From an uncultured Thermococci archaeon (lineage in GTDB: Archaea; CAYQAE01; CAYVLA01), in assembly GCA_964549615.1 (NCBI GenBank), contig CAZJVP010000090.1:17418-81417 (forward strand): DNA of 64,000 nucleotides, written 5' to 3'. Of this stretch, positions 3,901 through 64,000 are shown piece after piece. Position numbers and translations under genes: made by a program. Under the pieces are notes generated by a model. It was not told where the DNA came from and ran no database searches. It saw nothing but the letters and a program-made list of their open reading frames with translations. Position 1 is the stretch's first letter. Each line of letters opens with the position of its first letter.

Positions 3901-5145
3901 ATGAATTCAGGCGGTTCGGCCCACCTCGCGACAGGAAGGGATCTTTCCCTAGCCTCCCGGTGCGGGCTAGCTCTCATCACATTCGCGCTCCTCGCATCAC
4001 CGTTTGTCACCCATTCAAGGACTGACCCCGACACGGGAAGGATAAGGGTCATCTTCCTCGGCGAAGTCAAGCCTGCGCAGTTCCCTTTCCCCTCTTGGAT
4101 AGAGGCCGAGCCCAAGTTCACGCTGCGGCGCGTTCCATGCGACATAGAATGGTTCTCGGAAACTGATGCCCGTAGGTTCGCCCGCCTATATCTACCGAGG
4201 ACCTATAAGGACCTAGTAGACCACTACGATGCCATCATCTTCGAGGACTTCACGCTGAGAATCCTTCCGGAAGGGACCTTGGAGAGGTTCCAGAAGGCCA
4301 TAGGCGAGGATGGCCTTGGAATCGCCTTGGTCGAATACGTCTACTGGTCCGGCAACCTGAACGAGATCGACAGGTGGATGCAGTCAAGCTTTTACGATGT
4401 GTTTGCTGCGGATGTGGTCTTCGGGAGCGCCACCGACGTTGGGCGAAGGTTCTACGAGGTGTTGAGAAAGGAGCCCATCTTCGGCGTACCTGATATCTCA
4501 AAATGGGCTATGAACGGCGCAAGCCACGGAGACCTCAGGGCAAGGGAGGGCGCAACCGTGGAAGCAATCTGGAGCCAGAGGAAGACGGAGGCCGTCGTCA
4601 CGCGCAGCTACGGCAAGGGCTCGGTCATACAGATATCCCACGGTTGGGACAACATCCCGTCCGAAACCGTCATCGGGTATGAGTACCTTCCGGACCTGAT
4701 CTTCAACGAGCTCTTCTTCACGGCAAAGGTTGCCCCTCCCGAGGACCTTGCCATGGTCCACACGATCAGGGTCGATCTCATCCAGATTGCCCAGAGAAGG
4801 GAGTCTGCGGTCGCGCTTCTGGATTTCGTTGACAGGTTCGGAGCGAACACTGCAAGGTTGGAGAGAATGCTTGGAGACCTTGACGGTGTGGTCAAGCAGG
4901 CGGAGAAGGATTATATCCTGTCAAGGTATGCCGAAGCACAGGAAGCCCTCCAACGGGCGACCGAGGGATACGCCCGGTTCTCCGATTCCGCGGTTGACCT
5001 GAAGAACCGTGCCATGCTTTGGATCTATGTCATCGAATGGATCACCGTTGCGGCTACCCTCATGATCTGCTTGGAAGCCGTCTGGATCCTCATGGTAAGG
5101 AGAAGGCTCTACAGGGCGGTGCACGTAACAAGGGCGGTCGGCTAG
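3901..5145 (+). CDS. Membrane-anchored paralog family protein, copy 3
   Basis: Signal peptide, DPDTGRIRVIFLGE, RLYLPRTY, DFVDRFGAN, AMLWIYVIEW-TM-LMVRRRLYR. Confidence 0.85.
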   Translation: MNSGGSAHLATGRDLSLASRCGLALITFALLASPFVTHSRTDPDTGRIRVIFLGEVKPAQFPFPSWIEAEPKFTLRRVPCDIEWFSETDARRFARLYLPRTYKDLVDHYDAIIFEDFTLRILPEGTLERFQKAIGEDGLGIALVEYVYWSGNLNEIDRWMQSSFYDVFAADVVFGSATDVGRRFYEVLRKEPIFGVPDISKWAMNGASHGDLRAREGATVEAIWSQRKTEAVVTRSYGKGSVIQISHGWDNIPSETVIGYEYLPDLIFNELFFTAKVAPPEDLAMVHTIRVDLIQIAQRRESAVALLDFVDRFGANTARLERMLGDLDGVVKQAEKDYILSRYAEAQEALQRATEGYARFSDSAVDLKNRAMLWIYVIEWITVAATLMICLEAVWILMVRRRLYRAVHVTRAVG

Positions 5146-5180
5146 GCCCGTCGCCTGCCGAGAGGAAGCGACCAAAGCAC

Positions 5181-6737: not shown

Positions 6738-6983
6738 CGGCTGCTGGGATTCCCTAGGGTGAAAAAATGTATGGTTCCACCCACGGCAATGGCTCTTGGT
6801 TCCGCGGGAAAATGCTCGCATGAGGAAGCTCAAGAGTTCCGTGTCGCGCGTTGGTTGGCTCGCCGGCCTAGGGGAGGAGTGACCGGACTTTGCTCGCTCC
6901 GCCCAGCGGGTGCATCGGCCCCCGTCTTCCCGGGAAAGAGGAAAGAGGCCAAAGTTAAAAGGCACTTCGTCGTATGGTGGAGC

Positions 6984-47182: not shown

Positions 47183-48610
47183 TCACGTGAAAAGGCTTCT
47201 CAGTTCCCCCAGGAGCCCCTGCCCAGCGAGGTACCTGTAGGTGCGTCTCTTGATCTTGTTTCGGGAGAAAAGGCCCTTCACCCTTCTCGGAAGCGAGCCA
47301 TAGTAGCTTCGATAGCAATCGTATAGCTCCCGTTGGACCTCGTTCCGGGTCAGCGCCTCGGTGGGCATTATGGCGTGTACCATATCGTATTTCGCCCAGT
47401 TCTCCTCCTCTATCCAGCCGTTTCGTTTGGCAGTTTCGTAAAGCTGGGTTCCGGGGAATGGGGTGAGTATCATGAAGATGGCGAGATCGGGATCGGCATC
47501 CTGGACGAAGCCGATCAGCCTCGAAATGGTCTGCGAGGTGTCCTTCCTTTCCCCGATGATGAACGTGGCCTGGGCGAATATGTCGCTCCTCTTCAACAGA
47601 TCCATGGCCTTCAGCCCATCGTCGGGTCGTATCCCCTTTCCGAACGACTCAAGGGTCCGCGGGTTCCCGCTCTCAAGCCCGGCCAGCACCCACATGTTGC
47701 CTGCCCTTCGCATCGCAGGCAAAAGGTCGTGGTGCCTGACGACGTCATCCGCCCGGGCCTGCACAAACCACATGATCTCATCCGAGAGGCCTCGCCGGGT
47801 TATCTCGCTGCAAAGCTCCCTTGTCCGCTCCCCCAAGCCAAAGTTGTCGTCGACGAGCCAGATGAATTTCGTTCCGAAGTTGTTGAGGCAGTACTCCATC
47901 TCGTCCGCAATGCGTTTCGGCGATTTCGCCCGGTGCGCCCCCGCCCAGTGTCGCCACTGTGAGCAGAAGGTGCATCGATGTAGGCATCCCCTCGAACCCT
48001 CGATCAGGGCATAGCCCGCACCCGAGCCCACCATCATCCTGAAGTGGTATTTGTGCACGACGTCCCGGACGAAGTGATACCCGGGCAGTGGGAGCCCGTC
48101 CAGGTCTTGGATCAGCTCCCTGCCAGGGTTGTGAACGATGGCTCCATCATGTCGGAACGAGATGCCGCGGATTCCGGCAAGCGACGACCGATCGTCCAGG
48201 GCCCGTGCGAGTTCCAACAGGGTCCTTTCTCCCTCCCCCCTGACGATGACGTCTATCTCGGGGTAGGCCTGCAGGCTCTCATGGGACAATGCCGTGAAGT
48301 GCTGGCCGCCCGCCACGGTTAGGATATCGGGGTTGACGCTCTTGGCGAGCTCCAAGGTTCGCAGGACGGTGTACACGTTGCATGTGGAAAGACAGCTGGG
48401 AGCCACCAGGTCGGGTCGGAAAGCTTCGATCCGTGCCTCGAGGCCTTTCCAGTCGAGTTGCTCCGCCTGGCAGTCGACCACCGCGATCTCGGCCTCCCTC
48501 ATGTAGGCCTCCAGGTAGGCCGCCAGCTGGAGAATCCCAAGGGGCGGAGGAAGGTACTCGCCCATCACGAACCATGTCTCCCTCGGCGGCTCCACGAAAA
48601 GAATTCGCAT
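47183..48610 (-). CDS. Cobalamin-binding (class B) radical SAM protein
   Basis: PPLGILQLAAYL, GGQHFT, VRGEGE (B12 domain); SRGCLHRCTFC; GLESG, TPFPGT. Confidence 0.9.
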   Translation of the reverse strand: MRILFVEPPRETWFVMGEYLPPPLGILQLAAYLEAYMREAEIAVVDCQAEQLDWKGLEARIEAFRPDLVAPSCLSTCNVYTVLRTLELAKSVNPDILTVAGGQHFTALSHESLQAYPEIDVIVRGEGERTLLELARALDDRSSLAGIRGISFRHDGAIVHNPGRELIQDLDGLPLPGYHFVRDVVHKYHFRMMVGSGAGYALIEGSRGCLHRCTFCSQWRHWAGAHRAKSPKRIADEMEYCLNNFGTKFIWLVDDNFGLGERTRELCSEITRRGLSDEIMWFVQARADDVVRHHDLLPAMRRAGNMWVLAGLESGNPRTLESFGKGIRPDDGLKAMDLLKRSDIFAQATFIIGERKDTSQTISRLIGFVQDADPDLAIFMILTPFPGTQLYETAKRNGWIEEENWAKYDMVHAIMPTEALTRNEVQRELYDCYRSYYGSLPRRVKGLFSRNKIKRRTYRYLAGQGLLGELRSLFT

Positions 48611-49226: not shown

Positions 49227-51653
49227 CTACAAAGTCCAACATAGCTCCCAGCGGGTTCGGGGGCCCTTGGACACAACGGGGATCGCGAGCGATCCGTTGG
49301 CCCCAGGAAGCGGGTGAACTAGCTGCTCGTCCACCTTGGCCGTGGCGCGCGCGTTCGGGGGCCCAACTACCACGATGTAGCCCTGCTGGCCAGCTGGCCT
49401 GTTCAACTCCCCCGTGAGGGTCCCAGAGGAATCCCAGACCACGTTGCTCAGCTCGACGCCCCCGCTTTGATGGAACGTGGTCCCTACCACCCAGGGATGC
49501 ACTCTGGCCTTCCGCATGATCAAGAGCTTGACGGCCGGGCCGAAGTAGCTGATCTTCAAAGTACCCTTGGCCGCTGCGACTACGAGGGACTGCGCATCGC
49601 CAGGATGGACATAGCCGTTGACGCCCTCCTTCCTCGAGCAGACATCGCCCAGGAACTGTCCGGACCAGAACTCGTAGGCCCAGTACCTTCCACGCGCTTC
49701 AAGCCCGACGCGCCGCAAAGGCAGGTGGAAGGTGGTGATGCTGGGTCTGCCCTCGGAGTCCAGAGGCGCATCGTAGCTGAAGAGGGCGATCAGGTGCCAC
49801 TCATCCCAGCTTGACGAAACGGGCAGATGCCAGATCCTAGATCCGATCTGAACCGGTGACTCCACGCTCGTGGCCGGCTGTCCTCGGCACGAGGCCTCGT
49901 ACTCCAGGTGCGAAACGCGGACGGGCTCGAAGAGATCCACCGGACGCGCCGCGATGCCGAGGGGCGGAAGGGCGGCCAACAGTATTTGCCAGCGGTCCTC
50001 TGGCAGAAGGGTAAGGTCGTCCCCGATGTCCACCTGGCCGCCGCTCATGAAGGTCGCGGTCGCCCTCAGGCGGGCCTCCTCGATCGTGCCTGGCGGGCCG
50101 ACGCATAGGCAAGAGGGCTGTATGATTCCCCACCTGCGATGCTTGAAGAGGTGCCCTGCCAAGTTAAGGCCGTAGTTCTGCCGGTGATGCTGCCAGCCGA
50201 CGTACCCCGTGTTGCCCGTGTCGTTACAGGCGTAAAGAAGAGGGAAGCTTCCTGTGCCAGGTAGCTCCGGCCCGGAACAGTTGAGCAGGAGTGCCTCGGG
50301 GTCAACCGCCTGCATCTCCTCCCTCATTATGCGCATCCCAACTCGCGATGCCTCGCTTCCCCCTCCCGCCACAATGCTTGAGTCCCATCTATCGCGGAGG
50401 GCTCCATCGCTGGCCACCCCGAGGAAGTCAGCCTTGAGATACCGAACTCCCCTGTTTGCCAAGCCGCGGATCTTCTCCCTCAACCACCTCTGCGCATCCG
50501 GGTTTGTCAGGTCCAAGGCAAAGATCCTTCCATGGGGTTCCCAGAACCACTCACCCCTGGAGAGGGGCTTCTCCCCCTTCCCGCCGAGCAGCCAGTCAGG
50601 GTGTTCCCGGAAGATGGGATCAAACTCACTGATGCTGAAGGGCGCGGTCCAAACACCAAGCTTGAGGCCAAGCTCACGCAGGCGATCCGCCAGCCAAGCG
50701 AGGCCGTGAGGGAATTGGTCGTTCTCCTCAAACGCGCAGGGGAGATGGCCTCTCTGCCACCCGAGGTCCAGCTGCATTATGCTTAGGCCGAGCGGTTTGA
50801 GCCTTTCTGCCGCGATCTTTGCGTTCGCGAGGACACGCTGCTCGCTCACACCGAGGCGATGAGGATACCAGCTGCACCAGGAAACGGGGATGTCTGAGAT
50901 CGGCCTGACTTTGTGGCGACGTCCAACGACATCCGCATAACGCTCGAGCAGTCTCCAGGGATCCCGCCCCGCCAGCAGCACGACCTCCTCAAGGGTTATC
51001 CTCTCCCTCGGCTGTACGAGCAGGTCGCCGCCGTCAAAACCTATCGACCACGAATGCGGCTGGTATCCCAGCCGCTCTTCGGTGACGATCTGCCCCCTCC
51101 ATCTTTCCTCGGTCAGAAAGCCGACGCACAAGGCCGTCCCCGAATCAAGGTCAAAGCTCAGCCAGCAGGTGTCGGATGAGTGACGGGAAGGCCTAGCATC
51201 CTTGCCGCCCGCCGTCGCGGAGCCCAACCACCTGACCCTGGCCCAGTAGTTCCCCTGTTCATAGATGCGCGTCGAACGCGGACTCCGCGAGAGCCTGACC
51301 CGCATCTTGTCCCCGAGAACCGGGCCCAGGATCTGAACGTGATTCAGACGAAGACCTCGCCCCGACAGGTTTGTGAGTTCGCTACGCAGCAAGAAACCAG
51401 CATTCTCGACAGCCGAGAACTCCTGCACGAGGCGTACCCTTGCGGGCGCGAACTCGGTTTGCACTGCAATGCCCAGGCATGCGTCATCACGTTCCGTGAT
51501 ACGGTCGGTGACAGCAAGCCTGCGGCCGTCCACAATCAGACCTGGAGCCAGCGGCCCGACCCTGAGGCTCGCGCTCAGAGGTGAACTGATTACGATGCCG
51601 CTACGCTTGGACCGGCAGGTCAACCTGAGCCCTCCATGCGCGACGTCTAACAC
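49227..51653 (-). CDS. Alpha-galactosidase-like glycoside hydrolase (GH36)
   Basis: SWCSWY, QLDLGWQ, FPHGL, GVWTAPF, LDLTNPDA, YLKADF. Confidence 0.8.
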   Translation of the reverse strand: MLDVAHGGLRLTCRSKRSGIVISSPLSASLRVGPLAPGLIVDGRRLAVTDRITERDDACLGIAVQTEFAPARVRLVQEFSAVENAGFLLRSELTNLSGRGLRLNHVQILGPVLGDKMRVRLSRSPRSTRIYEQGNYWARVRWLGSATAGGKDARPSRHSSDTCWLSFDLDSGTALCVGFLTEERWRGQIVTEERLGYQPHSWSIGFDGGDLLVQPRERITLEEVVLLAGRDPWRLLERYADVVGRRHKVRPISDIPVSWCSWYPHRLGVSEQRVLANAKIAAERLKPLGLSIMQLDLGWQRGHLPCAFEENDQFPHGLAWLADRLRELGLKLGVWTAPFSISEFDPIFREHPDWLLGGKGEKPLSRGEWFWEPHGRIFALDLTNPDAQRWLREKIRGLANRGVRYLKADFLGVASDGALRDRWDSSIVAGGGSEASRVGMRIMREEMQAVDPEALLLNCSGPELPGTGSFPLLYACNDTGNTGYVGWQHHRQNYGLNLAGHLFKHRRWGIIQPSCLCVGPPGTIEEARLRATATFMSGGQVDIGDDLTLLPEDRWQILLAALPPLGIAARPVDLFEPVRVSHLEYEASCRGQPATSVESPVQIGSRIWHLPVSSSWDEWHLIALFSYDAPLDSEGRPSITTFHLPLRRVGLEARGRYWAYEFWSGQFLGDVCSRKEGVNGYVHPGDAQSLVVAAAKGTLKISYFGPAVKLLIMRKARVHPWVVGTTFHQSGGVELSNVVWDSSGTLTGELNRPAGQQGYIVVVGPPNARATAKVDEQLVHPLPGANGSLAIPVVSKGPRTRWELCWTL

Positions 51654-51919
51654 CTATCTCACCACACCTGATGCGGAACCGACGACTGATCCGACCTGAC
51701 GGGCTTCGCGTCGACGCAGACCTTGAAGGATTTATCGGGGACGTCCGGGAACATCCCGAGCCCTGGATGCATCGCAAGATGGAGCAAGAAAGCCTTTTCT
51801 GCGGCCGCGAAGGAAGCATCGAGCTTGGAAGCCAGGAAGTCGGCCGCATCGGCCCAGCTTCCTAGAGCATCTCCTTCAGAATAGAAGATGGTGAGAACCG
51901 TCAAGGATGCTGGTTCAGG

Positions 51920-53158
51920 ATGATCTCCGTACTGGTCCTCTTGGTCGTGTTCGCGCTGATTGCAGCAAGGCGAGTAGGCAGCGTCAGGCTTCAGATATGG
52001 CAGGTTATGCTGTTGGGCGCCGTGGCGGTTCTGGCGACAGGCCAGATCTCTCCTGAGGCTGCCGTGCGGGCCATAAACCTGGATGTGATGTTCTTCCTCT
52101 TCGGGATGTTCGTAGTCGGGGAAGCGCTCGAAGAGAGCGGATACCTCTCCCATCTTTCCCACAGGATGTTCAGGAAAGCGAAATCCTTCGACGCCCTGAT
52201 CCTCATAATCCTGTTCGGCATGGGGATCCCTTCCGCGTTCCTGATGAACGATACGTTGGCAATAATCGGAACGCCGGTGGTCCTCTCGCTCGCAATCAGG
52301 AATCGCATGCGGCCCCAGGTCCTGCTTCTTGCCCTTGCCTTCTCGGTGACGACAGGCAGCGCGATGAGCCCCATAGGCAACCCGCAGAACCTCCTGATCG
52401 CCATCGGGGCAAGGGTCGCCAATCCCTTCGTGACCTTCTTCAGATTCCTGGCCATGCCAACGATGGTCAACCTTCTTGTGGCCTACCTCATGCTGCGGCT
52501 CTTCTACGGCAAGCACCTTCGGGGCAAGCCGGTTGAAAGCTTCCCTGAGCCGATGAGGGATCCCGGGCTCGCCAAGCTTTCCCAAGTCTCCCTGATCTTG
52601 CTTGTGGTCCTGACAGGAGCCAAGATCGCGACGGCACTCCTGAACGTTGATATCGACTACAGGCTGACCTACATAGCGATTGCCTCGGCGGCCCCTATCA
52701 TCCTGCTGAGCCCTTCCAGACTGAGGCTGGTGAGGAACATCGACTGGCACACGCTGATCTTCTTCGCCTCGATGTTCGTCCTGATGGAGAGCGTGTGGGA
52801 CTCTGGCTTCTTCCAAAACCTCATCGGCGCGCTGAACGTAGACCTCAGCTCGGTGGGCATGATCCTAATCGTCAGCGTCCTGCTGAGCCAGTTCATCTCG
52901 AACGTGCCGCTCGTCGCGCTGTATCTGCCATTGCTCATCGAGTCCGGAGTCTCAACGAAGGCGACCATGGCCTTGGCTGCTGGGAGCACCATCGCGGGCA
53001 ATCTCGCGATCCTGGGCGCCGCCAGCAACGTGATCATAATACAGAACGCGGAGAAGAGATCCGGCGAGACCGTGTCGTTTTTCGAGTTTGTGAGGATCGG
53101 ACTGCCCCTAACTGCGGTCAACGTCCTCGTCTACTGGATGTTCTTTGCGGCCAGCTGA
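51920..53158 (+). CDS. ArsB/NhaD/citrate (SLC13-like) transporter
   Basis: SAFLMND, SPIGNPQN, SQFISNVP, STIAGN...GAASN. Confidence 0.85.
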   Translation: MISVLVLLVVFALIAARRVGSVRLQIWQVMLLGAVAVLATGQISPEAAVRAINLDVMFFLFGMFVVGEALEESGYLSHLSHRMFRKAKSFDALILIILFGMGIPSAFLMNDTLAIIGTPVVLSLAIRNRMRPQVLLLALAFSVTTGSAMSPIGNPQNLLIAIGARVANPFVTFFRFLAMPTMVNLLVAYLMLRLFYGKHLRGKPVESFPEPMRDPGLAKLSQVSLILLVVLTGAKIATALLNVDIDYRLTYIAIASAAPIILLSPSRLRLVRNIDWHTLIFFASMFVLMESVWDSGFFQNLIGALNVDLSSVGMILIVSVLLSQFISNVPLVALYLPLLIESGVSTKATMALAAGSTIAGNLAILGAASNVIIIQNAEKRSGETVSFFEFVRIGLPLTAVNVLVYWMFFAAS

Positions 53159-53319
53159 TCGGCTCCAGCACCCCGCAGAGACCGGGTGAGACCCCAACAT
53201 CCTTCCGAGAGTGCGAAGCTGGGATTCGAGGGTCTGAGGCGAAGCACGTTGCGATCCAGATGTGCCCGTCCGTCAACGCATTTTTATGGCACGGTTTGAC
53301 CGACAAGCTCGGAGGCAAG

Positions 53320-53964
53320 ATGATGGTTCACATCCAACCACCCCTCACTGTGCCCAAGGACGCCATCGTCCTGTTCAATGGCAAGGACCTTCGAAACTGG
53401 CGCACTCGAAAGGGCGAACCGGCTGGCTGGGAGGTCTCGAAGGGGGTAATGACGGTCGTGAAAGGGACGGGCGACATCGCCACCGACATGAAGTTCACCG
53501 ACTTCTTCCTCCACCTAGAGTGGATGGAGCCCGACATGCCGGAGGCGAAGGGGCAGGCCAAGGGGAACAGCGGCGTGTACCTTCAGGGACGCTACGAGAT
53601 CCAGGTCCTGGACTCCTACGGCATCGAGATCCCTGGAAAGGGGGATTGCGGCGCGATATATGACCAGTTTGCGCCGCTTGTCAACGCATGCAAGCCGCCG
53701 CTTCAGTGGCAAACCTATGATGTGGCGTTCCGTGCACCACGGTTTGACGATTCGGGAAAAGTCCTGAGCCAGGCGCGGGTGACGGTCTTCCAGAACGGCA
53801 TACTGATACACAACAACGTCGAGGTGCTCGGCCCCACGGGCGGCGCCATGGACACCAACATCGCCGAGCCGGGACCGCTCCTGCTCCAGGACCACGGGAA
53901 CCCGGTTAAGTATCGCAACATCTGGATCGTACCGCTTCCCTTGAAGGGATCAGACAAGTACTGA
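53320..53964 (+). CDS. DUF1080 (3-keto-disaccharide hydrolase) family protein
   Basis: LFNGKDL..W, LHLEW, GNSGVY..YEIQVLD, LQDHG..V.YRNIWI; GGAGG RBS. Confidence 0.9.
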   Translation: MMVHIQPPLTVPKDAIVLFNGKDLRNWRTRKGEPAGWEVSKGVMTVVKGTGDIATDMKFTDFFLHLEWMEPDMPEAKGQAKGNSGVYLQGRYEIQVLDSYGIEIPGKGDCGAIYDQFAPLVNACKPPLQWQTYDVAFRAPRFDDSGKVLSQARVTVFQNGILIHNNVEVLGPTGGAMDTNIAEPGPLLLQDHGNPVKYRNIWIVPLPLKGSDKY

Positions 53965-54161: not shown

Positions 54162-54917
54162 TTGCCTGCCGTGGAGTCCCCTCGGCGAATGGCGCTTGAC
54201 AAGCAGCTGAGGAGGCAATCGCTGTGGCTCCGGGATTCCTACATCTGGCTGCTCAGCGCGAAGGTCGCCCAAGGGAGAAGCGGGATGTCCGCACTCGACG
54301 TCGGGTGCGGCCCGGGCTTCGTCATGGAGATTCTGGGAAAGTTGTTCGCCGTCACCGGAGTCGATACGGATGAAGATATGGTCAGGGCATGCAGGGCGAA
54401 GGACCTGAGCGTTCAGAAGGCCTCCGCGTACCGGCTGCCGTACCGGGATTGTTCCTTCGACATCGTCTACTGCTCATTCCTGCTGCTATGGCTCAAGGAG
54501 CCTTCGAAGGCACTGGAGGAGATGTCACGGGTTTCGAAGGCGCACGTGCTGTGCCTAGGGGAGCCCGATCTTGGGGCGCGCATCGATCATCCCGAAAGCC
54601 TCGCAGGGCTGGGTCCCCTGCTTGTGGAAGGGATGAGGAAGCAAGGCGCAGATCCGTTCATGGGCAGGAAGCTCAGGCAGCTCTTCAAGCGATGCGGCCT
54701 CATGGTCGAGGTGGGCGTCCACCCGGGAGTGTGGGACATAACCAAGCTGAGGCAGGAGTACGAGGACGAGTGGAGATACATCGAGTCCACCGCAACGACT
54801 GCATCGGATGACCAGATGCGCAGGCTTCGCGAGGCATGGCGGGAGGCCCTCTCCGCGAGGACGCTGTTCCAATACAACCCCATCTTCTATGCGCTCGGGC
54901 GCAAGCGCTGGGCCTAG
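54162..54917 (+). CDS. Class I SAM-dependent methyltransferase
   Basis: ALDVGCGPG, GVD, LPYRDCSFDIV; start may be 54189. Confidence 0.85.
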   Translation: MPAVESPRRMALDKQLRRQSLWLRDSYIWLLSAKVAQGRSGMSALDVGCGPGFVMEILGKLFAVTGVDTDEDMVRACRAKDLSVQKASAYRLPYRDCSFDIVYCSFLLLWLKEPSKALEEMSRVSKAHVLCLGEPDLGARIDHPESLAGLGPLLVEGMRKQGADPFMGRKLRQLFKRCGLMVEVGVHPGVWDITKLRQEYEDEWRYIESTATTASDDQMRRLREAWREALSARTLFQYNPIFYALGRKRWA

Positions 54918-54919
54918 CC

Positions 54920-56272
54920 CTACATGTTTGAGTGCCTGTCCAGACAAAGATAGTCCTCGCGCTCATGCGCGAGTGGGCACCCGCCACCGCACACGTCGGC
55001 CAGGTTGCACGTCCTGCATTTCTCCGGCAGGTACCCGCGGCTGCGAAGCCGTCTGCACAGCTCGTGGTTCCATATCCTGTCCCACGGATCGGTGAGAATA
55101 TTGCCCAGGGATTGATAGTAACTTTGGCAGGGCAGCACGGTGCCGTCCGGCTCCACGGCCATGTTGAGCGAACAGGCAGTGCACTGCTTGATGCCGAGGC
55201 CGAGGTTGATCGGGTTGAAGTTGCAGTATGGCGTCGGGGTGTACCACGTCAGCTTGACGCCGGCCTCCTCGGTCATCGCCATGATGTTGACCAACAGCGA
55301 CTCGAGCTCCTCATAGGCGATGCTCCTAGCACCCTTGCCCTTGCCTGATCGGATGAGGCCGTTGAAAGCGATGTTCTTCACGCCCAACCCGATCAGGAAT
55401 CGGCACGTCTCCTCCAGATCCTCGTAGTTCTCCCTCAGTATTGTCGTGTTCGTGGCAAAGTAGAAGTCCTCCTTGACGGCGGCCTTGATGCCCTCGACGG
55501 TCTGCTTCCAAGCACCCGCGGATCCGCAGAGGGCGTCGTGGACGCTCTGCCTGTAGGAGAGGAGGGTGACTTGAGCATGGTCGAGTCCGGCCGCGATTAG
55601 ATCACGGAGGTATCCCTCCTTTGCAAGCTTCCTCCCGTTGCTTATCAGGCCCGTCACCTGACCGTGCTCCTCTGACCTCGCGATCAGCTGCCGGAGGTGG
55701 GGCGAAAGGGTGGGCTCACCGCCGGTAAAGACGATGTGGGGGACCCCGATCTCCCAGGTTCTGTCGATGACCTTCAGCCAACCGGCCAGGTCAAGCTCCT
55801 TGACCGCCCGGTTCTCGTTGTAACAATGTGCGCAGCTGTTTTCGCACCGGTACGTCAGGGCAAGATCCATCCTGTAAGGCGAGGGAAGGTCATCGGCACC
55901 GATCGTCGGCGTTTCCGCAGGAGTCTGCTTGATCACGTCCGCCTGCCCGCGGAGGAATCCCAGAAGCTGGCTCCTCAGGTCGTTGTAGTGTCGCCTGGCG
56001 GTTGCCTCGTCGAGCTTCCTGTACCGGGAGAGCATGTACTTGGCCATCCTTGCCTCGTCCCATCCCTCCAGCAGGCCGCGCACATAGTCCAGCGCGGTGC
56101 CGTTTAGGAAGAGGAGCTTTGAGGCATCGATCATCAGGACCCCCTTCCTTCGGCTGTCGACCCTGAGGTGGAAGCGGTGGCGCGCAAGCTCGCCCTTGCC
56201 ATCGAACTTATAGGTGCCCGCCCTGAGCTCCTTCTCCGTCCGCAGGCCAAACGCCGCTTTGAGGCGCGTCAT
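54920..56272 (-). CDS. Radical SAM/SPASM protein with PqqD/RRE-like N-terminal domain
   Basis: CENSCAHC (CxxxCxxC), FTGGEP, SNG; SPASM CTAC...DGTVLPC...CRTC-x5-CGGGC; ATG 56272 overlaps the upstream stop (ATGA). Confidence 0.9.
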   Translation of the reverse strand: MTRLKAAFGLRTEKELRAGTYKFDGKGELARHRFHLRVDSRRKGVLMIDASKLLFLNGTALDYVRGLLEGWDEARMAKYMLSRYRKLDEATARRHYNDLRSQLLGFLRGQADVIKQTPAETPTIGADDLPSPYRMDLALTYRCENSCAHCYNENRAVKELDLAGWLKVIDRTWEIGVPHIVFTGGEPTLSPHLRQLIARSEEHGQVTGLISNGRKLAKEGYLRDLIAAGLDHAQVTLLSYRQSVHDALCGSAGAWKQTVEGIKAAVKEDFYFATNTTILRENYEDLEETCRFLIGLGVKNIAFNGLIRSGKGKGARSIAYEELESLLVNIMAMTEEAGVKLTWYTPTPYCNFNPINLGLGIKQCTACSLNMAVEPDGTVLPCQSYYQSLGNILTDPWDRIWNHELCRRLRSRGYLPEKCRTCNLADVCGGGCPLAHEREDYLCLDRHSNM

Positions 56273-57912
56273 CTGCCGCCCCCCGCACATGCGCACGCAC
56301 AGGCGCAGGCGCACGCGCAACCCCCTCCGAAGCCACCGCCGATGCCGCCTCCCCAGTACCCGGCCCGGGATCCTGCGCCCGCGGCCGGCCGCGCCGAAAG
56401 GGGGTTGGTGACCCTTGCGACATCCGTCGCAAGAGACCTCATGTTCGAGACCATGTTCCTGCTGCTGGTTCTGAGCCTGGAGACGTATCCTCTGGCCAGG
56501 GACCGGGCGTCGCCGGGCTCGGCTCGACCTCCTGGCCGAGAGGCGGGTTGCCAGACGTATGCGAACCCGCGCATCCGCCCGGGATACCTCCTGTCGAGCA
56601 TCATCCAATCGTTGTTCGTCTCAAGCTCCCGTGCGAAATCCTCGGGGGTATTCGCGGCCTTGACCTGCTTCCACGCCTTCTCGCAGATCGAGCGGTAGTA
56701 TTCCCTTGTATCCTCATACGAGAACCCCCTGAGCTTCTTCTTCACGCTCTCTATCAGTCTCACCAGCCCGGCCTTAAGTGCGGGGGAGGCCAACCTTCCG
56801 TCCGGCCCGATTGCCTTCAGGTAGTCGGTCTCATACTCATAGTCCCCAGCCTCGGCAAGCTTCTTGAGCCGCATTGGCCTTTCGTCGGAGATTATCTGGA
56901 TCTTGCCCTTCCTTACCAATCCGTAGAGGATCATGGTTGCGACGACTGCAAGCGGCCTTTCCAGAACGATGGCCGCCTCAACGGCGGTGAGATCCCGTCT
57001 GGGACCGGCGCCCTGCTGTGAGACCTCGGGCTCGAAATAGTCCATCATGGCTTTCCGCCCGCTGTGGATGGCCAGGGCGAAGAACGTGGTCACCAGGCCC
57101 GCGATGAGGATGACCGGAAGCAACAGAACGAGGAGCTCTCCGGCCGAGTGGAGGAACTCAACCAGCTTTTCGAGGAGGCCGTACTTGTAGTACCTATCCA
57201 CGAAGGCCTTGGGGAAAGCGACGCCCACATCGTAGACCCCCTGCGCCTGTTGGCGGGGGTCGACGTTTGAGCGGGTCCAAGACGCAACTATCCGCCCGGT
57301 CGCCGGGTCATATTCCACCGAATCCCACGGGTGGTCCTCTAGGTACACGGCCCCGTTGCCGTCGAAGCCCTCGGGGAACAAGACCCTGACCTTCAATTCC
57401 CCCGTGTTTCCTCTCTGGTAGTCCGGATCGAAATTGGTTGGCCTGAACCTGATCCCCGCCGTGCCCTTGACCAACTTGTTATCGTAGACCATGTGCGGGT
57501 TGTTTATCTGCAACCGGACCGTGAAGGGGGTTCCAGCAGAGATGGCTGCTTGGATGGCCGGCGTGAACTCAACCGCAACGCCGACGCCCACGTACGGCGA
57601 CTTGCGGATCTCTCGCGGCTGATACTGATTGCTGCCGATCGTTATGCTCGCCCTAGCTGACCCTATGTCGTAGTGGCGGTTGGGCAGCCCTATGTCAACG
57701 CCAGTGAGGGCGCCGAAGTTTGCCAGTTCGATCGTATAGTCGATGTCCACGCTGCCGTCCTTGAGGATCCAGACATCGACATGTTCCCTCCTGACCTCGA
57801 AATCCAAGCCGTCGTAGCCTGAAACGAGGGGCACCCCAATGCTCGTCACAAGCAGCAGCGCGAGAGTCAGCGGTCCTAGGTCCGGGCAATGCCGCAAACG
57901 TACCTTCGCCAT
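56269..57912 (-). CDS. DUF2207-like membrane protein with Gly-flanked (Cys-Ala)6 C-terminal tail
   Basis: Signal peptide, VDVWILKDGSVDIDYTI, central TM helix, LTAVEAAIVL...LYGLVRKGKI, ends WGGGIGGGFGGGCACACACACACAGGGR. Confidence 0.8.
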   Translation of the reverse strand: MAKVRLRHCPDLGPLTLALLLVTSIGVPLVSGYDGLDFEVRREHVDVWILKDGSVDIDYTIELANFGALTGVDIGLPNRHYDIGSARASITIGSNQYQPREIRKSPYVGVGVAVEFTPAIQAAISAGTPFTVRLQINNPHMVYDNKLVKGTAGIRFRPTNFDPDYQRGNTGELKVRVLFPEGFDGNGAVYLEDHPWDSVEYDPATGRIVASWTRSNVDPRQQAQGVYDVGVAFPKAFVDRYYKYGLLEKLVEFLHSAGELLVLLLPVILIAGLVTTFFALAIHSGRKAMMDYFEPEVSQQGAGPRRDLTAVEAAIVLERPLAVVATMILYGLVRKGKIQIISDERPMRLKKLAEAGDYEYETDYLKAIGPDGRLASPALKAGLVRLIESVKKKLRGFSYEDTREYYRSICEKAWKQVKAANTPEDFARELETNNDWMMLDRRYPGRMRGFAYVWQPASRPGGRAEPGDARSLARGYVSRLRTSSRNMVSNMRSLATDVARVTNPLSARPAAGAGSRAGYWGGGIGGGFGGGCACACACACACAGGGR

Positions 57913-57922
57913 ACCCTCCGCC

Positions 57923-58285
57923 TCACCACTTGGGTTCTTCCTCCAAGGCGTAGGCCGAGCCGCAGTACGGGCACTTCACCATGATCCCTCCCTTTACCAC
58001 GGTCAAGTCCTTCTCCTGCAGGACTGCCCCGCAGGACTTGCAGGCCAGCTTGCGCTCTCTGAACTCACCCGACCCGCCCATGGTCACATGGAACTCTTGC
58101 CTGATCGGTCTCTTCGCCTCCACCCTTGTGCTCGCGTAGATGTACCCCAGCAGGGCGAAGGCGATCAGGATCATCACGGTCCCTGTCAGGATGTTCTCCG
58201 CCTGACCCGCGACCAAGAATATCGAGCCCAACATCACCAAGCAGAGTGCAACGAAGATGACGACCAGCTTGAGCGCATCATGCAC
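57923..58285 (-). CDS. Small two-TM protein with C-terminal zinc ribbon
   Basis: Two hydrophobic helices, CKSCG...CPYCG, ends EEEPKW; 10 bp before the next gene. Confidence 0.8.
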   Translation of the reverse strand: MHDALKLVVIFVALCLVMLGSIFLVAGQAENILTGTVMILIAFALLGYIYASTRVEAKRPIRQEFHVTMGGSGEFRERKLACKSCGAVLQEKDLTVVKGGIMVKCPYCGSAYALEEEPKW

Positions 58286-58421: not shown

Positions 58422-58700
58422 TCAGAGGCTCCGATAGGCCTGGCTGCGGTGGACCAACTCGGTCACCAAGACAGTGGTGCCCTCGACTGCGAAGATCACT
58501 CTGTATTCGCCGACCCTCATCCTGTAGAGTGGTGTCCTGCCCTCGGGCACCCTGAGCTTTCTGATATCGGAACCCGGCTTGGAGATCGAAGGGTTCTCTC
58601 TCAACTGGCGGATGGCCGCTAGGATCCTGCTCCTGGTGGAAGAGTCAAGCTGGGAGAGTCCCTTCAGGACGTCTCCATGGACGAGGACATTGAAGCTCAC
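58422..58700 (-). CDS. RelE/ParE family toxin
   Basis: RILAAIRQLRENP, DIRKL, YRMRVGEYRVIF, HRSQAY; GTGA overlap with the antitoxin. Confidence 0.88.
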   Translation of the reverse strand: MSFNVLVHGDVLKGLSQLDSSTRSRILAAIRQLRENPSISKPGSDIRKLRVPEGRTPLYRMRVGEYRVIFAVEGTTVLVTELVHRSQAYRSL

Positions 58701-58891
58701 TCTATCTCTTCCAGGGGGACGAACCTGGTGCGGTCCTCGAGTTTTGCATATTGCCTTTCCACGAACTCCACCCAACGTACCTGTGAGACCAGCCGGCGGA
58801 GGATCTGGTCGTATGTTTCCCCCTTCTTGCCGAGCGCCTTCAGGATCTCGCGCGTGTCCTTGGTCACAGGTATCGTTGTCATTTCTCCCAT
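58697..58891 (-). CDS. Antitoxin (archaeal RHH-like)
   Basis: MTTIPVTKDTREILKALGKKGETYDQILRRL...FVPLEEIE, directly upstream of the RelE-like toxin. Confidence 0.82.
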   Translation of the reverse strand: MGEMTTIPVTKDTREILKALGKKGETYDQILRRLVSQVRWVEFVERQYAKLEDRTRFVPLEEIE

Positions 58892-61163: not shown

Positions 61164-63896
61164 TCAATCGATCCGGACATTTGCGAAAGCCCTTACGACC
61201 ACGGGGCCCAGAATCCCCGAGGGCTGAGGCTGGACTGCCTTCTCACCTGGGGGCGGGAACCTCCTGCCGTACTTGCGCTCCAGTTCCGAGTAGTCCGGGT
61301 CGGGGAGCTCAAGCACCTTGTTGATGAGAAGGTTGGAGACCTCGACCCGCAGCAAGTTGTCGCCCTTGCGAGCGTATCTTGTGATATCCAGCTTGTACGG
61401 CGGAGCCCAGAGCCTTGCGGCAAGCTTGCCGTTGACGCGCACAGTTGCGACCTCCCTCACATCTCCCAAGTCGAGCTCAAGCCCGATGCCGCGCGCCAGG
61501 TATTCCTTCGGCAGGTTGAAGGTAGTTCTGTAGATGCCCGGGCCGGAGTAGCCTTTGGCCTCGGGGATCTCGGTCCATGAGCACAGCTTGTCAAGCCTTC
61601 GTGACTTCAAGCGACCTTCAATGGTCAAAGCCCATCCAGCGATGTCAAGGCTTGGGGGTATCTCCTTCACTCGGAGTCTCCGGCTACGCCCATCGTGATC
61701 CTTCACCACGTGACTGCCCGGCCGATCAGCCCTGGCTACCAACCCGCCGACGGGCGACCTCTCAACTATGGGCAGGTCCGAGCGCAGCAGGTGGAACTGC
61801 GGCCTTGCCTTGCGGAAGGCGATGAGGTGGGACCCGTAGGGTGCAAACCGCAGCGATAGCGTGGTCCTGGCGCCCATGGGCCGGTACACGCAGCACTGCT
61901 TCCGTTGGCCGCTCTGAGGATCGATCAGATACGGAACCCGCCCGTTGACGCGGAAGGTTATGTCCAGGGTCTTTTCTAGATCGGAGGAGTTGCTCAGGAA
62001 GTAGATCTCCTCTCCCGGACATGCGCGGTGGATGAACAGCACGCTGGGATCGGGGCTGGGGAGCTCGACGTCTGGCTCCACCAACCTCCGCAGGATCGCG
62101 CTGATCTCCTTCTCGGACTCGGCGACCGCCGGCGAGAGCGTGCCGGCCATCGCACTCATCCTCTCCAACTCTGCTCGAAGCGAAGCCATCTCGGATGCGC
62201 TCCTCTGGTCTCCCGGCGGGTGGGGCGCAGCGGTTGGAAGCCTGCTGACGAAGACGATCGGTACCTTGTGCTTGGCCAGCTCTAGGAGTTTCCTCATGGC
62301 CTCTATAGCGATGTAGTCAACTTGGGGGACGAGAAGCAGGCGATACTTGAGCCCGGAGACCACCAGGACCCCGTCGCGCGCCTCGGACCTGAGAAGGATC
62401 TCATCGTTGGCGATGTCGAAGTCGTTCCCCGCGGCCCAGACGACATCGGGCAATGAGCCGAGCTGCTGGATGAGGCGGGTGAGCGTCGTGGGCTTTGATT
62501 CGTTAGTCATCTTGCACCAGATGTCGGCAAGGGAGGTGTAGATGAGGACGTCAGCGGTCGAGATCCCCCTGTGCAGTTCCCGGCAAAGGCGGGCGTTGCG
62601 CGCGTTGAGGAACTTTACGTATGGCCACCACGTGTTGTTCTGGTTGATCTGGGTCTCGGCGTAGAACGCCCATCCCGGCGACCCGATGCTCCTAGGCGAA
62701 TAGGGGAATCCGTGGTAGATGAGATGGTTGACGCCGTGGCAGAACAGCCTGTCGGCGACGACCTTCAGCATCCTGGGATTGACCAAGAACCTAGGCCTTC
62801 TGAGATAGGTATAGGTCTCGCAGGAGACATCGGTTCTTCCGTAGAGGTGGGCAGCGGAGGAGGCAATCTTCGGGATCTTGGTGATGAGGGGGCTATCGGC
62901 CGACCAGCCCAGCTCGGACTCGCACTCTGGGATGTCCAGTTCCCCGTAGCACTTGATTATGTCTGCAGGCTCCTCGCCATGGGCCTGGATCCTGCAGTAG
63001 GCTCCCTTGGCGTGGCACCATTCCTGCATGGCCATCATGTAGTCTTCCAAGGTCAGCTCGGAGAGCGTCCTCCAGTAGTCGTAACGGAGTCCCGCCGAGA
63101 TGTCCGGCACCTCGCTGTCAAGGGCGGGCAGGTAGGGAAGCAGCTCGTACCCCCTCCTACGGCGGAACTCCTCGGGGAGGCGCTCAGTCCAGTTGGAGCC
63201 GAACACCTCCCAGCTGTCGGAGAAGAAGCACCTGGTCTTGCCCTTTGTGGCGCGAGCAAGCTTCTCGCCGACCTCGCGGAAGTGCGTCTCCATGGCCTTG
63301 CGCGAATAGTGGTCCAGAACCCAACCCTCGGCGCCGACCGTGGCCCGTTTGACCATCATCCGGGTGTAGCTAGTCGCGTAACGGACTATCCTCCAGTTGC
63401 CCGCCGGCGCGGTCCACTGCTGAACCGCCCTGGGCTTGAGCAGATCCACCGCCCTCTCCAGATCCAGACGACCCCGGTCAATCGGGGCGGCCTTCAGGAG
63501 GATGACCTCCTCGTCTTGCTCTAGGGGTTTGTCTTTGCTATCCCATGTCTGGCCCTCGGCAAGGTCCCAGAAGTCGTACCTGATCTTGCGCGCCGCCTCC
63601 TCCTTTGGGACGTGCGGCCCGCCGAATGGCCAACCGCTGCCCAGCGTGACGTCAACTGTCAGCCCAAGACGGGTGGCCGTGTCCGCCGCAAAGCTCACCA
63701 TCTCGAGGAACTCTTCGGAGAGCCATGGCAAGTTGCGGGTTTCGTCCGCGCTTAAAGGGTAGACCGGCTGTAACTCGATGCCCCCGAAGCCGCACCTCCT
63801 CATCTCCCGGAGTTGGTATTCGATCTCGGCCTTCTCGACGGCGCCTCCGAACCACCACCATCGAGCGAACGGCTTGTACCTGGACAGTCGCCTCAT
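61164..63896 (-). CDS. GH106-like (alpha-L-rhamnosidase) glycoside hydrolase
   Basis: PFARWWWFG, GFGGIE, TLGSGWPFGGP, LDHYS, FSDSWE, IPECE, ASSAAHLYG, LDLGDV...PSGILGPV. Confidence 0.82.
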   Translation of the reverse strand: MRRLSRYKPFARWWWFGGAVEKAEIEYQLREMRRCGFGGIELQPVYPLSADETRNLPWLSEEFLEMVSFAADTATRLGLTVDVTLGSGWPFGGPHVPKEEAARKIRYDFWDLAEGQTWDSKDKPLEQDEEVILLKAAPIDRGRLDLERAVDLLKPRAVQQWTAPAGNWRIVRYATSYTRMMVKRATVGAEGWVLDHYSRKAMETHFREVGEKLARATKGKTRCFFSDSWEVFGSNWTERLPEEFRRRRGYELLPYLPALDSEVPDISAGLRYDYWRTLSELTLEDYMMAMQEWCHAKGAYCRIQAHGEEPADIIKCYGELDIPECESELGWSADSPLITKIPKIASSAAHLYGRTDVSCETYTYLRRPRFLVNPRMLKVVADRLFCHGVNHLIYHGFPYSPRSIGSPGWAFYAETQINQNNTWWPYVKFLNARNARLCRELHRGISTADVLIYTSLADIWCKMTNESKPTTLTRLIQQLGSLPDVVWAAGNDFDIANDEILLRSEARDGVLVVSGLKYRLLLVPQVDYIAIEAMRKLLELAKHKVPIVFVSRLPTAAPHPPGDQRSASEMASLRAELERMSAMAGTLSPAVAESEKEISAILRRLVEPDVELPSPDPSVLFIHRACPGEEIYFLSNSSDLEKTLDITFRVNGRVPYLIDPQSGQRKQCCVYRPMGARTTLSLRFAPYGSHLIAFRKARPQFHLLRSDLPIVERSPVGGLVARADRPGSHVVKDHDGRSRRLRVKEIPPSLDIAGWALTIEGRLKSRRLDKLCSWTEIPEAKGYSGPGIYRTTFNLPKEYLARGIGLELDLGDVREVATVRVNGKLAARLWAPPYKLDITRYARKGDNLLRVEVSNLLINKVLELPDPDYSELERKYGRRFPPPGEKAVQPQPSGILGPVVVRAFANVRID

Positions 63897-64000
63897 ATGT
63901 CCGTTCCTTCTCCCTGCAACATCTTCCCTGCCTGAAAGCATCGTGACCGCTCGAAGGTACACCAAATGCGATCAGATCGGTTGGCCAATCGACGCGACGC

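Follow-up and report, generated by a model that had tools for sequence, protein, structure and literature searches.

A conserved gene cassette that appears to pair a radical SAM-SPASM enzyme with the Cys-Ala tail of a membrane protein

Radical S-adenosylmethionine (SAM) enzymes that combine a SPASM domain with a recognition element (RRE) for peptides that are ribosomally synthesized and modified post-translationally (RiPPs) are known mainly as makers of small modified peptides. In the QhpD/QhpC, PQQ and mycofactocin systems, SPASM enzymes crosslink or reshape residues, either in a protein subunit or at a precursor's C-terminus, and the substrates are soluble and small. Whole-protein targets of radical SAM-SPASM enzymes are few, and one was reported only in 2026: according to passages of that paper (PMC13692751), CrpC, an RRE-containing radical SAM-SPASM enzyme, forms thioethers in CrpA, a Cys-rich protein of 28.8 kDa from Methanococcus voltae, and QHNDH is named in the discussion as a protein with RiPP-like modifications. 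Here we describe a gene cassette in a 64,000-nucleotide stretch of DNA (contig CAZJVP010000090.1, positions 17,418 to 81,417; hereafter the window, whose own numbering is used below) from an uncultured Thermococci archaeon. The cassette encodes an RRE-radical SAM-SPASM enzyme, a membrane protein with a C-terminal (CA)n-GGGR tail (hereafter the tail protein) and a Zn-ribbon membrane protein. We propose, at a probability of roughly 0.6, that it is a conserved maturation system in which a DUF2207-related, single-pass membrane protein has its cytoplasmic (CA)n-GGGR tail modified by the dedicated RRE-radical SAM-SPASM enzyme.

The three genes occupy positions 54920-58285 of the minus strand in the order Zn-ribbon protein, tail protein and radical SAM enzyme, and re-derivation of the open reading frames confirmed the tight linkage reported in a first-pass annotation of this DNA. 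The stop codon of the Zn-ribbon gene is separated from the ATG of the tail-protein gene by a 10-nt gap, ggcggagggt, which is Shine-Dalgarno-like (ggaggg), and the tail-protein stop overlaps the radical SAM start in an ATGA. The translation also bears out the C-terminus that the same annotation had described, namely ...GGGIGGGFGGG-CACACACACACA-GGGR with six alternating Cys residues.

This tail is the most conserved part of its protein. A word-based search yielded 70 tail-protein homologs at 27-52% identity, none with a Pfam domain on record; the few named ones are labelled as Methanomassiliicoccales, Thermoplasmata or Anaerolineales metagenome-assembled genomes. Nearly all full-length homologs end in (CA)n...GGGR, and all 31 aligned full-length homologs, which share 30-50% identity with the query at a mean column identity of 37%, have an identical final decapeptide, CACACAGGGR. 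The family is large: a profile search covering 1.84 billion cluster representatives recovered 1239 of them at E<=0.001, 809 at E<=1e-10 and 378 at E<=1e-30. Among 138 newly listed representatives, 113 end in CxCxC..GGGR and 13 have a CxC tail with another ending (e.g. GGAG). The 12 without a tail by pattern are mostly fragments of 283-486 residues, and one of the 12 ends in CACAGGGR.

Genomic loci were then drawn from a scan of one genome per species, with at least 604 pattern matches, at least 287 of which encode a relative of the tail protein. The best 80 were kept: 7 from Methanomassiliicoccales, 4 from Bathyarchaeia or unclassified archaea, and 69 from Chloroflexota or other bacteria, including the complete genome of Leptolinea sp. 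HRD-7 (L065). An in-frame open reading frame ends in a Cys-repeat tail in 78 of the 80 loci, and the tail comes in dialects. Methanomassiliicoccales use a single run, H/G-(CA)5-6-GGGR; Chloroflexota use CACACACAG-CACACAGGGR; and Bathyarchaeia use three blocks, CVCACAxCACACACVSCACACAHGGAR. Across related loci, the 74 tails that end in CACACAGGGR are encoded by 73 different 30-nt strings, which draw on both Cys codons, all four Ala codons, all four Gly codons and all six Arg codons. So many DNA versions of one peptide indicate selection on the peptide and not on the DNA; the tail peptide is under purifying selection and is not a stretch of low complexity. At L004:8450-8760 and L032:8400-8700 the tail is out of frame after an apparent single-base change in the preceding G-run, which could be an assembly error or a real pseudogene. 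A fusion of tail protein and radical SAM enzyme in one 999-aa frame at L004 was considered and rejected, as it reflects this frameshift before the tail.

The gene order Zn-ribbon protein, tail protein, radical SAM enzyme is kept in Methanomassiliicoccales, Chloroflexota and Bathyarchaeia. Of the 73 loci that offer 1.7 kb or more of room, 69 have a full-length radical SAM ortholog (at least 250 bits) as the next gene downstream of the tail gene, in the same orientation (7/7 in Methanomassiliicoccales, 58/62 in Chloroflexota and 4/4 in Bathyarchaeia), and four of the seven loci with less than 1.7 kb show the start of the radical SAM gene at the contig end. On the upstream side, the Zn-ribbon gene is the immediate neighbour in 76 of the 77 loci where 500 bp or more is available. 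With automatic start picks, the gap between the Zn-ribbon and tail genes has a median of 30.5 nt (at most 100 nt in 64 of 76), and that between the tail and radical SAM genes a median of 17 nt (-10 to 100 nt in 62 of 69, with 11 overlaps). Such short gaps leave no room for a separate precursor-peptide gene in most cassettes, consistent with the earlier observation that no free precursor peptide is visible at this locus.

The association also holds in the reverse direction. We sampled 121 genomes of the order Methanomassiliicoccales (around L001) and took radical SAM orthologs at E<=1e-100. The tail protein was found in 49 genomes, the enzyme in 48 and both in 47, and in all 47 pairs the two genes are adjacent, with the radical SAM gene downstream on the same strand. 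Two genomes carry the tail protein alone, one of them with its match at a contig end, and one carries the enzyme alone, with a 276-aa open frame that matches the profile in part, at positions 177-453. Since 71 of the 121 genomes have neither gene, the pair appears to be gained and lost together; 47 of the 50 genomes with either have both. Co-occurrence and synteny, the check that the first-pass annotation had recommended, thus support its proposal. The system is common, being present in about 40% of the sampled genomes of this methanogen order and, in its (CA)n form, in 14 of 101 sampled Anaerolineae.

The enzyme belongs to the radical SAM superfamily (Pfam PF04055, 79.9 bits against a cut-off of 29.5, residues 139-293), and its barrel aligns to solved radical SAM enzymes at Z >20. 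Members of this superfamily have a partial TIM barrel and a CX3CX2C motif for the [4Fe-4S] cluster that cleaves SAM. It also carries a SPASM domain (PF13186, 41.3 bits against 21.5, residues 364-423). Among 50 orthologs, C364, C382, C419, C422, C428 and C432 are each present in all 50 and C350 in 47, with a further Cys at C367 (20/50) or C372 (34/50); the C-terminal four are spaced C419-x2-C422-x5-C428-x3-C432, the CX2CX5CX3C pattern of SPASM domains, which have about 7-8 Cys. This conserved set would be enough for two auxiliary clusters. The AlphaFold2 (AF2) model of the enzyme, with a mean pLDDT (the predicted score in the local distance difference test) of 81.9 and a predicted template modelling score (pTM) of 0.83, places a PqqD-like RRE at the N-terminus, built from strands 19-24, 33-38, 44-48 and 52-56 and helices 58-68, 73-83 and 89-107. 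The RRE called in the first-pass annotation is supported by matches to PqqD (PF05402) in 36 of the 50 orthologs (best E 2.5e-9), and by an alignment to SuiB that starts at residue 22 and takes in the N-terminal domain. RRE domains are winged-helix-like, with a sheet of three strands plus three helices, and bind the leader of a substrate.

Structural comparison points to peptide maturases. The top Foldseek matches to the enzyme model are SkfB, SuiB, PqqE, BlsE and CteB. In VIA-align, SuiB (5v1s_A) gives Z 26.4 and a root-mean-square deviation of 4.0 over 375 aligned residues (model 22-446 against chain 4-439), followed by SkfB (Z 25.2, model 32-437), CteB (Z 24.5), PqqE (Z 23.7) and anSME (Z 23.3); viperin, MoaA, GDGT-MAS (Z 19) and NifB (Z 16-17) have lower Z or shorter coverage. 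No curated NCBIfam radical SAM family, SkfB, StsB, ACGX and GeoRSP included, was reached: among the 25 best of 67 families for the window enzyme, all of them far below their cut-offs, NirJ2 (121.8/500 bits) and PqqE (120.7/381) score highest, and TIGR04053 (103/395), AhbD (96/500), MftC (67/265) and AhbC are also present, while the AlbA model aligns from residue 53. The Leptolinea and Bathyarchaeia orthologs likewise fall below every NCBIfam cut-off. Membership of a known non-peptide family, which would have told against the first-pass proposal, therefore found no support, since no NCBIfam cut-off is reached and the top structural matches are RiPP maturases. As modelled, the enzyme is an RRE-radical SAM-SPASM protein of the kind that matures peptides, and its clade has no curated name.

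These comparisons bear on whether the tail is the substrate at all. The enzyme could instead act on a peptide encoded elsewhere, a tetrapyrrole, a lipid or a small molecule, with the membrane and Zn-ribbon proteins serving to anchor or regulate it. The presence of NirJ2, AhbD and AhbC among the best NCBIfam matches, far below cut-off as they are, and the structural match to the lipid enzyme GDGT-MAS at Z 19 would fit such a substrate, and the tail chemistry is itself a prediction. However, most cassettes have no room for a precursor gene, the invariant element is the tail and not the remainder of the protein, and of the 48 genomes with the enzyme just one lacks the tail protein, its match to the enzyme being partial. 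We regard a different substrate as distinctly unlikely, and modification of the tail, at its cysteines, as the probable function of the enzyme.

A second, related system provides a further argument. In the 101 genomes sampled from Anaerolineae, the class around Leptolinea, the family profile gives a strong match in 14 and a weak one in another 14, and in the weak genomes the match spans the cytoplasmic half. All 14 of the latter (L081-L094) encode a 570-634-aa DUF2207-type protein with an almost invariant (ACHS)n/ACVHD tail that ends in (R/S)(F/V), a Cys-His repeat with about 13 Cys. These sister proteins match the window tail protein at E ~1e-11 to 1e-14 (8e-12 for the one at L082). Their radical SAM enzyme has the same PqqD-Radical_SAM-SPASM composition (PqqD at 32.3 bits), is 30-38% identical to the window enzyme, and is encoded immediately downstream of the tail gene in 10 of the 13 loci long enough to show it; a coiled-coil protein of about 400 aa comes next. 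A second tail class that usually comes with its own radical SAM clade is what would be expected of a substrate and its catalyst, and is hard to explain by accidental neighbourhood. That the tail motif changes together with the enzyme clade also argues against a substrate other than the tail.

The composition of the sister tail brings in another explanation, in which the tail itself, its alternating thiolates lined up along one side of a strand, binds a metal or an Fe-S cluster and the radical SAM enzyme, in place of modifying the tail, builds, inserts or repairs a tail-held cluster or cofactor, or uses the tail as a cluster or electron partner. A tail rich in Cys and His is typical of metal ligands, the partner protein is a Zn-ribbon protein, and metal binding is also raised as the likely role of the CrpA product in the CrpA/CrpC paper, in the passages cited above (PMC13692751). 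The cluster-building enzyme NifB is among the structural matches, but only at Z 16-17, well below the Z 24-26 of the peptide maturases, and the PqqD-like RRE is a peptide-binding domain. We consider this account unlikely as a replacement for tail maturation, and metal binding and enzymatic crosslinking are not mutually exclusive.

How the enzyme would gain access to the tail can be considered from the architecture of the tail protein. Its AF2 model (mean pLDDT 80.9, pTM 0.49) begins with a hydrophobic helix at residues 13-26, which is a signal or an anchor, and continues through the domains listed in Table 1. Past the transmembrane segment, the model predicts a helix/strand unit (residues 310-351) and a helical region (359-453), which together form a winged-helix-like and helical cytoplasmic part. 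In the juxtamembrane motif, G301, G303, R306, L308, T309 and A313, among others, are invariant or nearly so. Two helices (residues 469-488 and 491-502) lead to a nearly invariant P504 within a TNPxP consensus, and residues 507-547, comprising a Gly-rich linker and the Cys-Ala end, are modelled as disordered. Basic residues before the first helix and after the long helix would, by the positive-inside rule, put the beta-sandwich outside and the C-terminal half inside. In this predicted topology the C-terminal half shares a compartment with the radical SAM enzyme. The elements of the signal peptide and topology assigned in the first-pass annotation are present in the sequence and the model, and the topology itself is to be held less firmly than it was stated there.

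In Foldseek, the outside domain matched oligosaccharyltransferase entries (8b6l_O, 6s7o_E, 6ezn_A) and the N-terminal domains of M1 aminopeptidases at E 1e-7 to 8e-11, yet with TM-scores of only ~0.26, a low whole-model value that arises because the tail protein has several domains. The tail protein has no Pfam or NCBIfam match at E<=0.1. This includes DUF2207 (PF09972), to which it stays below the 24.4-bit cut-off, and the hidden Markov model of DUF2207 found no protein in the source genome at E<=10 and none in five ortholog-bearing genomes at E<=0.01. TIGR04222 (cut-off 43 bits) gave no match to the window protein at all and a sub-threshold 20.5 bits in the juxtamembrane region of the Leptolinea ortholog. 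The sister protein at L082 reaches 25.2 bits against DUF2207, just over the cut-off, and a sub-threshold 34.2 bits against TIGR04222, again in the juxtamembrane region. Moreover, the ESM Atlas returned DUF2207/DUF2207_C clusters at a score of 0.94 and, at 0.97, a Bathyarchaeota cluster in which 20% of the members have DUF2207. The label "DUF2207-like" given earlier thus stands as a distant kinship, through the sister protein and the ESM Atlas, and not as a direct Pfam match; the tail protein is likely a distant relative of DUF2207.

Some family members carry N-terminal extensions, and a scan of six longer ones (711-948 aa) found no Pfam family. Six proteins of 766-948 aa (P0195, P0201, P0202, P0207, P0214 and P0297) have an extra 230-340 residues at the N-terminus and a normal Cys-repeat tail; all of these except P0202 were scanned against Pfam, with no family found.

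Table 1 Positions of the cassette genes and of their main features (window coordinates, except for the last row)
Feature	Position	Strand	Remark
Zn-ribbon membrane protein	57923..58285	-	120 aa, GTG start
Tail protein	56269..57912	-	547 aa, single-pass membrane protein
Tail protein: extracytoplasmic beta-sandwich domain, residues 38-234	57211..57801	-	AF2; blocks mostly pLDDT >90
Tail protein: long helix with transmembrane segment, residues 246-291	57040..57177	-	AF2; followed by basic HSGRK
Tail protein: juxtamembrane motif GAGPRRDLTAVEAAIVLERPL, residues ~300-320	56953..57015	-	Conserved in alignment
Tail protein: two helices and ...VTxxTNPxP, residues 469-506	56395..56508	-	AF2 and alignment; just before linker
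Tail protein: (CA)6-GGGR tail, residues 532-547, proposed substrate	56272..56319	-	Translation and alignment
RRE-radical SAM-SPASM enzyme	54920..56272	-	450 aa from ATG
Enzyme: N-terminal PqqD-like RRE domain, residues 19-107	55952..56218	-	AF2; four strands, then three helices
Enzyme: CX3CX2C motif, C143, C147, C150	55823..55846	-	Cys in 50/50 orthologs each
Enzyme: SPASM region, residues 350-432	54977..55225	-	Cys for two auxiliary clusters (predicted)
Class I SAM-dependent methyltransferase	54162..54917	+	251 aa; convergent with radical SAM gene, 2 bp between
Sister system, example at locus L082	2386-4290 (tail protein), 4294-5706, 5722-6933		

Three further components accompany the pair. 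The Zn-ribbon protein has two N-terminal hydrophobic helices followed by a cytoplasmic CxxC...CxxC ribbon. At its C-terminus, which has the consensus EEPKW, E116, P118 and W120 are invariant in 23 orthologs, as are four Cys, and its matches to zinc-ribbon families of Pfam and NCBIfam are all sub-threshold. The methyltransferase matches Pfam Methyltransf_11 at 70.3 bits, and its best NCBIfam match, the DVU_1556 family, reaches 56.5 bits against a cut-off of 155. A link to DVU_1556/DVU_1557 was considered on the basis of this score and of 16.8 bits (cut-off 60) for the Zn-ribbon protein, and was dropped because both lie far below the cut-offs. A methyltransferase homolog (blastp E<=1e-5), mostly at 30-54% identity and near full length, occurs in 52 of the 80 loci; all 7 Methanomassiliicoccales loci have it adjacent and convergent, and in Chloroflexota it is mostly co-oriented downstream. 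It is likely an accessory component. Finally, most Chloroflexota loci contain a degenerate radical SAM paralog of about 385 aa between the radical SAM and methyltransferase genes, which is absent from the archaeal loci. The Leptolinea copy (L065:10017-11177) has a PqqD-like N-terminus (22.6 bits, cut-off 23.4) and a partial Radical_SAM match. It has neither the CX3CX2C motif nor the SPASM cysteines, and is therefore probably catalytically dead, judging by these missing residues. In a clustering of the neighbouring genes, the Zn-ribbon, radical SAM, pseudo-radical SAM and methyltransferase families were the only ones found in many loci, and no peptidase family was conserved in the cassette.

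The last observation weighs on the idea that the tail serves as a precursor that, once modified, is cleaved and set free as a small cofactor or peptide derived from Cys, with the large protein serving as leader or scaffold. PQQ and mycofactocin derive from their precursors' ends, and the mycofactocin pathway also includes a methyltransferase. Accordingly, the fixed C-terminus (GGGR is always the last four residues in the (CA)n clade), the resemblance of the enzyme to PqqE, the sub-threshold MftC matches and the accompanying methyltransferase can be read in favour of release. However, the cassette has no conserved peptidase, and a 547-aa membrane protein with a conserved outside domain would be an expensive single-use precursor. 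We judge release of the tail to be very unlikely. The system would also not be a RiPP pathway in the usual sense, with a short leader-and-core precursor from which proteolysis frees the modified peptide, the candidate substrate being a full-size membrane protein; the term "RiPP-like modification of a protein" fits better.

Returning to maturation of the tail in place, we co-folded residues 466-547 of the tail protein with the enzyme loaded with three 4Fe-4S clusters and SAM. Single runs gave 0.44, 0.57 and 0.21, for a score of 0.44, against 0.04 for the best control. In a calibration that was ligand-free and made without custom alignments, 116 of 157 solved complexes got to this mark, as did 2 of 215 mismatched pairs, and at scores of up to 0.60 only 18 of the 157 solved complexes passed, together with both of the passing mismatches. 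Contact agreement between the runs is 37% or more, and the partner has a pLDDT of at least 33, with ~34 for the tail itself. Co-folding, which had been suggested as a check, thus gives the pairing weak support, a small push in its favour.

Based on these data, we propose a plausible mechanism by which the tail might be modified. First, the tail protein would insert with its beta-sandwich outside and its C-terminal half inside. The RRE might then dock on the helical/TNPxP segment (residues 469-506), which would be leader-like and lies upstream of the Gly-rich linker, and this linker would feed the tail into the active site, bringing a tail Cys near an auxiliary cluster. Abstraction of an H atom from a neighbouring Ala or Gly by the 5'-deoxyadenosyl radical could yield thioether-type crosslinks or another Cys-centred modification, repeated along the tail; thioethers to Ala or Gly carbons would be the nearest precedent. 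The methyltransferase may subsequently methylate the tail. The Zn-ribbon membrane protein would act as a third partner in a structural or recruiting role, and may hold the enzyme or the tail at the membrane. The finished protein may serve in metal or redox sensing, or have a structural role. In thioether maturation of the sactipeptide and ranthipeptide type, a Cys sulfur is joined to the alpha, beta or gamma carbon of an acceptor residue, with a loss of 2 Da for each link. Thioethers specifically are a tentative assignment, for which just the resemblance to CteB and SkfB and the Cys-rich tail speak. The tail consists only of Cys, Ala, Gly and Arg, and the acceptor motif given for CrpA in the passages cited is C-X-X-Q/D (PMC13692751), so that a thioether of the known type is not an obvious fit.

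Several other observations weigh against the proposed maturation system as a whole. The window enzyme has no Pfam PqqD match at E<=0.1, and its RRE is assigned through the orthologs and the model; its best NCBIfam scores are equally low for peptide (PqqE) and tetrapyrrole (NirJ2, AhbD) enzymes. Gly- or Cys-rich low-complexity tails are presumably more widespread in DUF2207/TIGR04222-type proteins, and a tail of this kind could thus have an enzyme-free role such as metal binding. The link between enzyme and tail is drawn from gene neighbourhood, co-occurrence and fold, and a weak pass in co-folding belongs to a class that is more often wrong than right unless the pair is likely beforehand. Four of the 73 loci have no full-length adjacent radical SAM gene: it is in pieces in L016, represented by an N-terminal match only in L020, replaced as neighbour by a degenerate paralog in L071, and missing from locus L078. 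The whole genomes of L071 and L078 encode an ortholog elsewhere (697 and 540 bits, respectively). The methyltransferase is missing from 28 of the 80 loci, including 4 of 4 from Bathyarchaeia, and about ten of these misses are on short contigs. In the sister system, the enzyme is not adjacent in 3 of 13 loci, being 7.5 kb away on the same contig in one, on another contig in the second and not found at E<=1e-40 in the third. Overall, among the four sister genomes searched, which were those with no radical SAM gene at the locus, two lack it at this threshold, and in one of these two the contig ends right after the tail gene.

We also considered a broader version of the maturation hypothesis. Cys-repeat tails of the DUF2207 superfamily might be converted by dedicated RRE-radical SAM-SPASM enzymes into a crosslinked or metal-holding prosthetic module that is kept on the membrane protein. 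This could take in at least two tail classes, the Zn-ribbon partner, the methyltransferase and sometimes the dead radical SAM paralog. Such generality is possible, and we hold it with much less confidence than the maturation of the (CA)n-GGGR tail. If true, it would provide a protein-anchored counterpart, in bacteria and archaea, of peptide-derived cofactors such as PQQ and mycofactocin, and a receptor-like protein with a redox- or metal-active cytoplasmic end.

The source genome (3.2 Mb, 99.5% complete) is archaeal: ribosomal protein S8e is encoded and L20 was not found. The nearest homologs of the window cassette carry Methanomassiliicoccales or Thermoplasmata labels, and the cassette is found in 2 of 5 species genomes of the source group at the phylum level, both from the same genus as the source; the searches at class and phylum level covered those five genomes, a sample that says little about spread. 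Lateral acquisition by the source genome is a reasonable inference. Immediately upstream of the cassette, a gene for a ParE-family toxin (117 aa) overlaps one for a 64-aa DUF7557 protein (58422-58891, minus strand), likely a toxin-antitoxin pair. A B12-binding radical SAM enzyme of 475 aa is encoded about 6 kb off the cassette (47183-48610, minus strand), with no link to it seen. The flanks at 49227-53964 and 61164-63965 contain sugar metabolism- and transport-like genes, including a melibiase/GH31-like protein, a CitMHS transporter, a 3-keto-disaccharide hydrolase and a GH106 alpha-L-rhamnosidase, which are not kept beside the cassette in other loci.

The first-pass annotation did not recognise a characterised pathway here, and our searches agree: no Pfam or NCBIfam (June 2026) model was reached at its curated cut-off for the tail protein, the Zn-ribbon protein or this radical SAM clade, and no paper on such a pathway was found in the literature searched, though relatives might stand among the radical SAM-associated Cys-rich proteins in the supplementary list of PMC13692751. 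In the literature searched, the strings CACACAGGGR, CACACACAGGGR, CACACACACAGGGR, ACACAGGGR and TEEPKW have no occurrence, shorter strings are matched by nucleotide sequences, and EEPKW turns up in a plant paper on another subject. Likewise, no paper was found that joins radical SAM to a Cys-Ala repeat or alternating Cys, or SPASM to the C-terminal tail of a membrane protein. The filter described in PMC13692751, at least 5% Cys for proteins of more than 250 aa, would miss the tail protein, which has 7 Cys in 547 residues.

If the proposed maturation system is real, it would define a previously unseen class of substrate, an integral membrane protein's cytoplasmic tail, with an unusually simple and strictly conserved core, (CA)n-GGGR. 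It would come with two further fixed partners, the Zn-ribbon membrane protein and the methyltransferase, and with a natural second version whose tail differs. For the large DUF2207-type group, listed by Pfam as a domain of unknown function, it would offer a first lead to function. The short repetitive core makes an attractive model substrate for the chemistry of this radical SAM clade. Experiments may be feasible, as the complete genome of Leptolinea sp. HRD-7 carries the cassette; the other carriers seen are metagenome-assembled genomes.

The cassette can be compared with several known systems. The ACGX system (TIGR04340, radical SAM/SPASM) also combines a Cys-repeat candidate with a radical SAM-SPASM enzyme, and the sister ACHS repeat likewise recurs every four residues, with its Cys at the matching position. 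However, TIGR04340 scores of 54.9 and 94.8 bits lie far below its cut-off of 400, and ACGX repeats sit in small peptides, not at the end of a membrane protein. DUF2207 (PF09972/PF20990) and TIGR04222 proteins resemble the tail protein in having an outside beta domain, a transmembrane helix, a cytoplasmic region and a low-complexity tail, whereas the definitions of these families, by their model names, include neither a (CA)n-GGGR end nor fixed radical SAM and Zn-ribbon partners. SuiB, SkfB, CteB and PqqE share with the window enzyme the domain order of RRE, radical SAM barrel and SPASM/twitch domain (Z 23.7-26.4), at only 16-24% sequence identity. Their substrates are free precursor peptides with cleavable leaders, whereas most cassettes described here fit no separate peptide gene. 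The closest parallel is CrpA/CrpC (PMC13692751), in which, by the passages cited, a radical SAM-SPASM enzyme with a predicted RRE likewise adjoins a Cys-repeat protein instead of a short peptide, with the repetitive Cys at the C-terminus. CrpC belongs to TIGR04463, which is not among the 25 best of 67 NCBIfam families for the window enzyme. CrpA has ten 17-residue repeats with C-X-X-Q/D motifs, and no membrane anchor is mentioned for it in those passages, whereas the candidate substrate here is a 547-aa membrane protein with just a 16-residue (CA)6-GGGR end. What is known, then, is RRE-radical SAM-SPASM maturation itself; what is new is that it is apparently aimed at the tail of a membrane protein.

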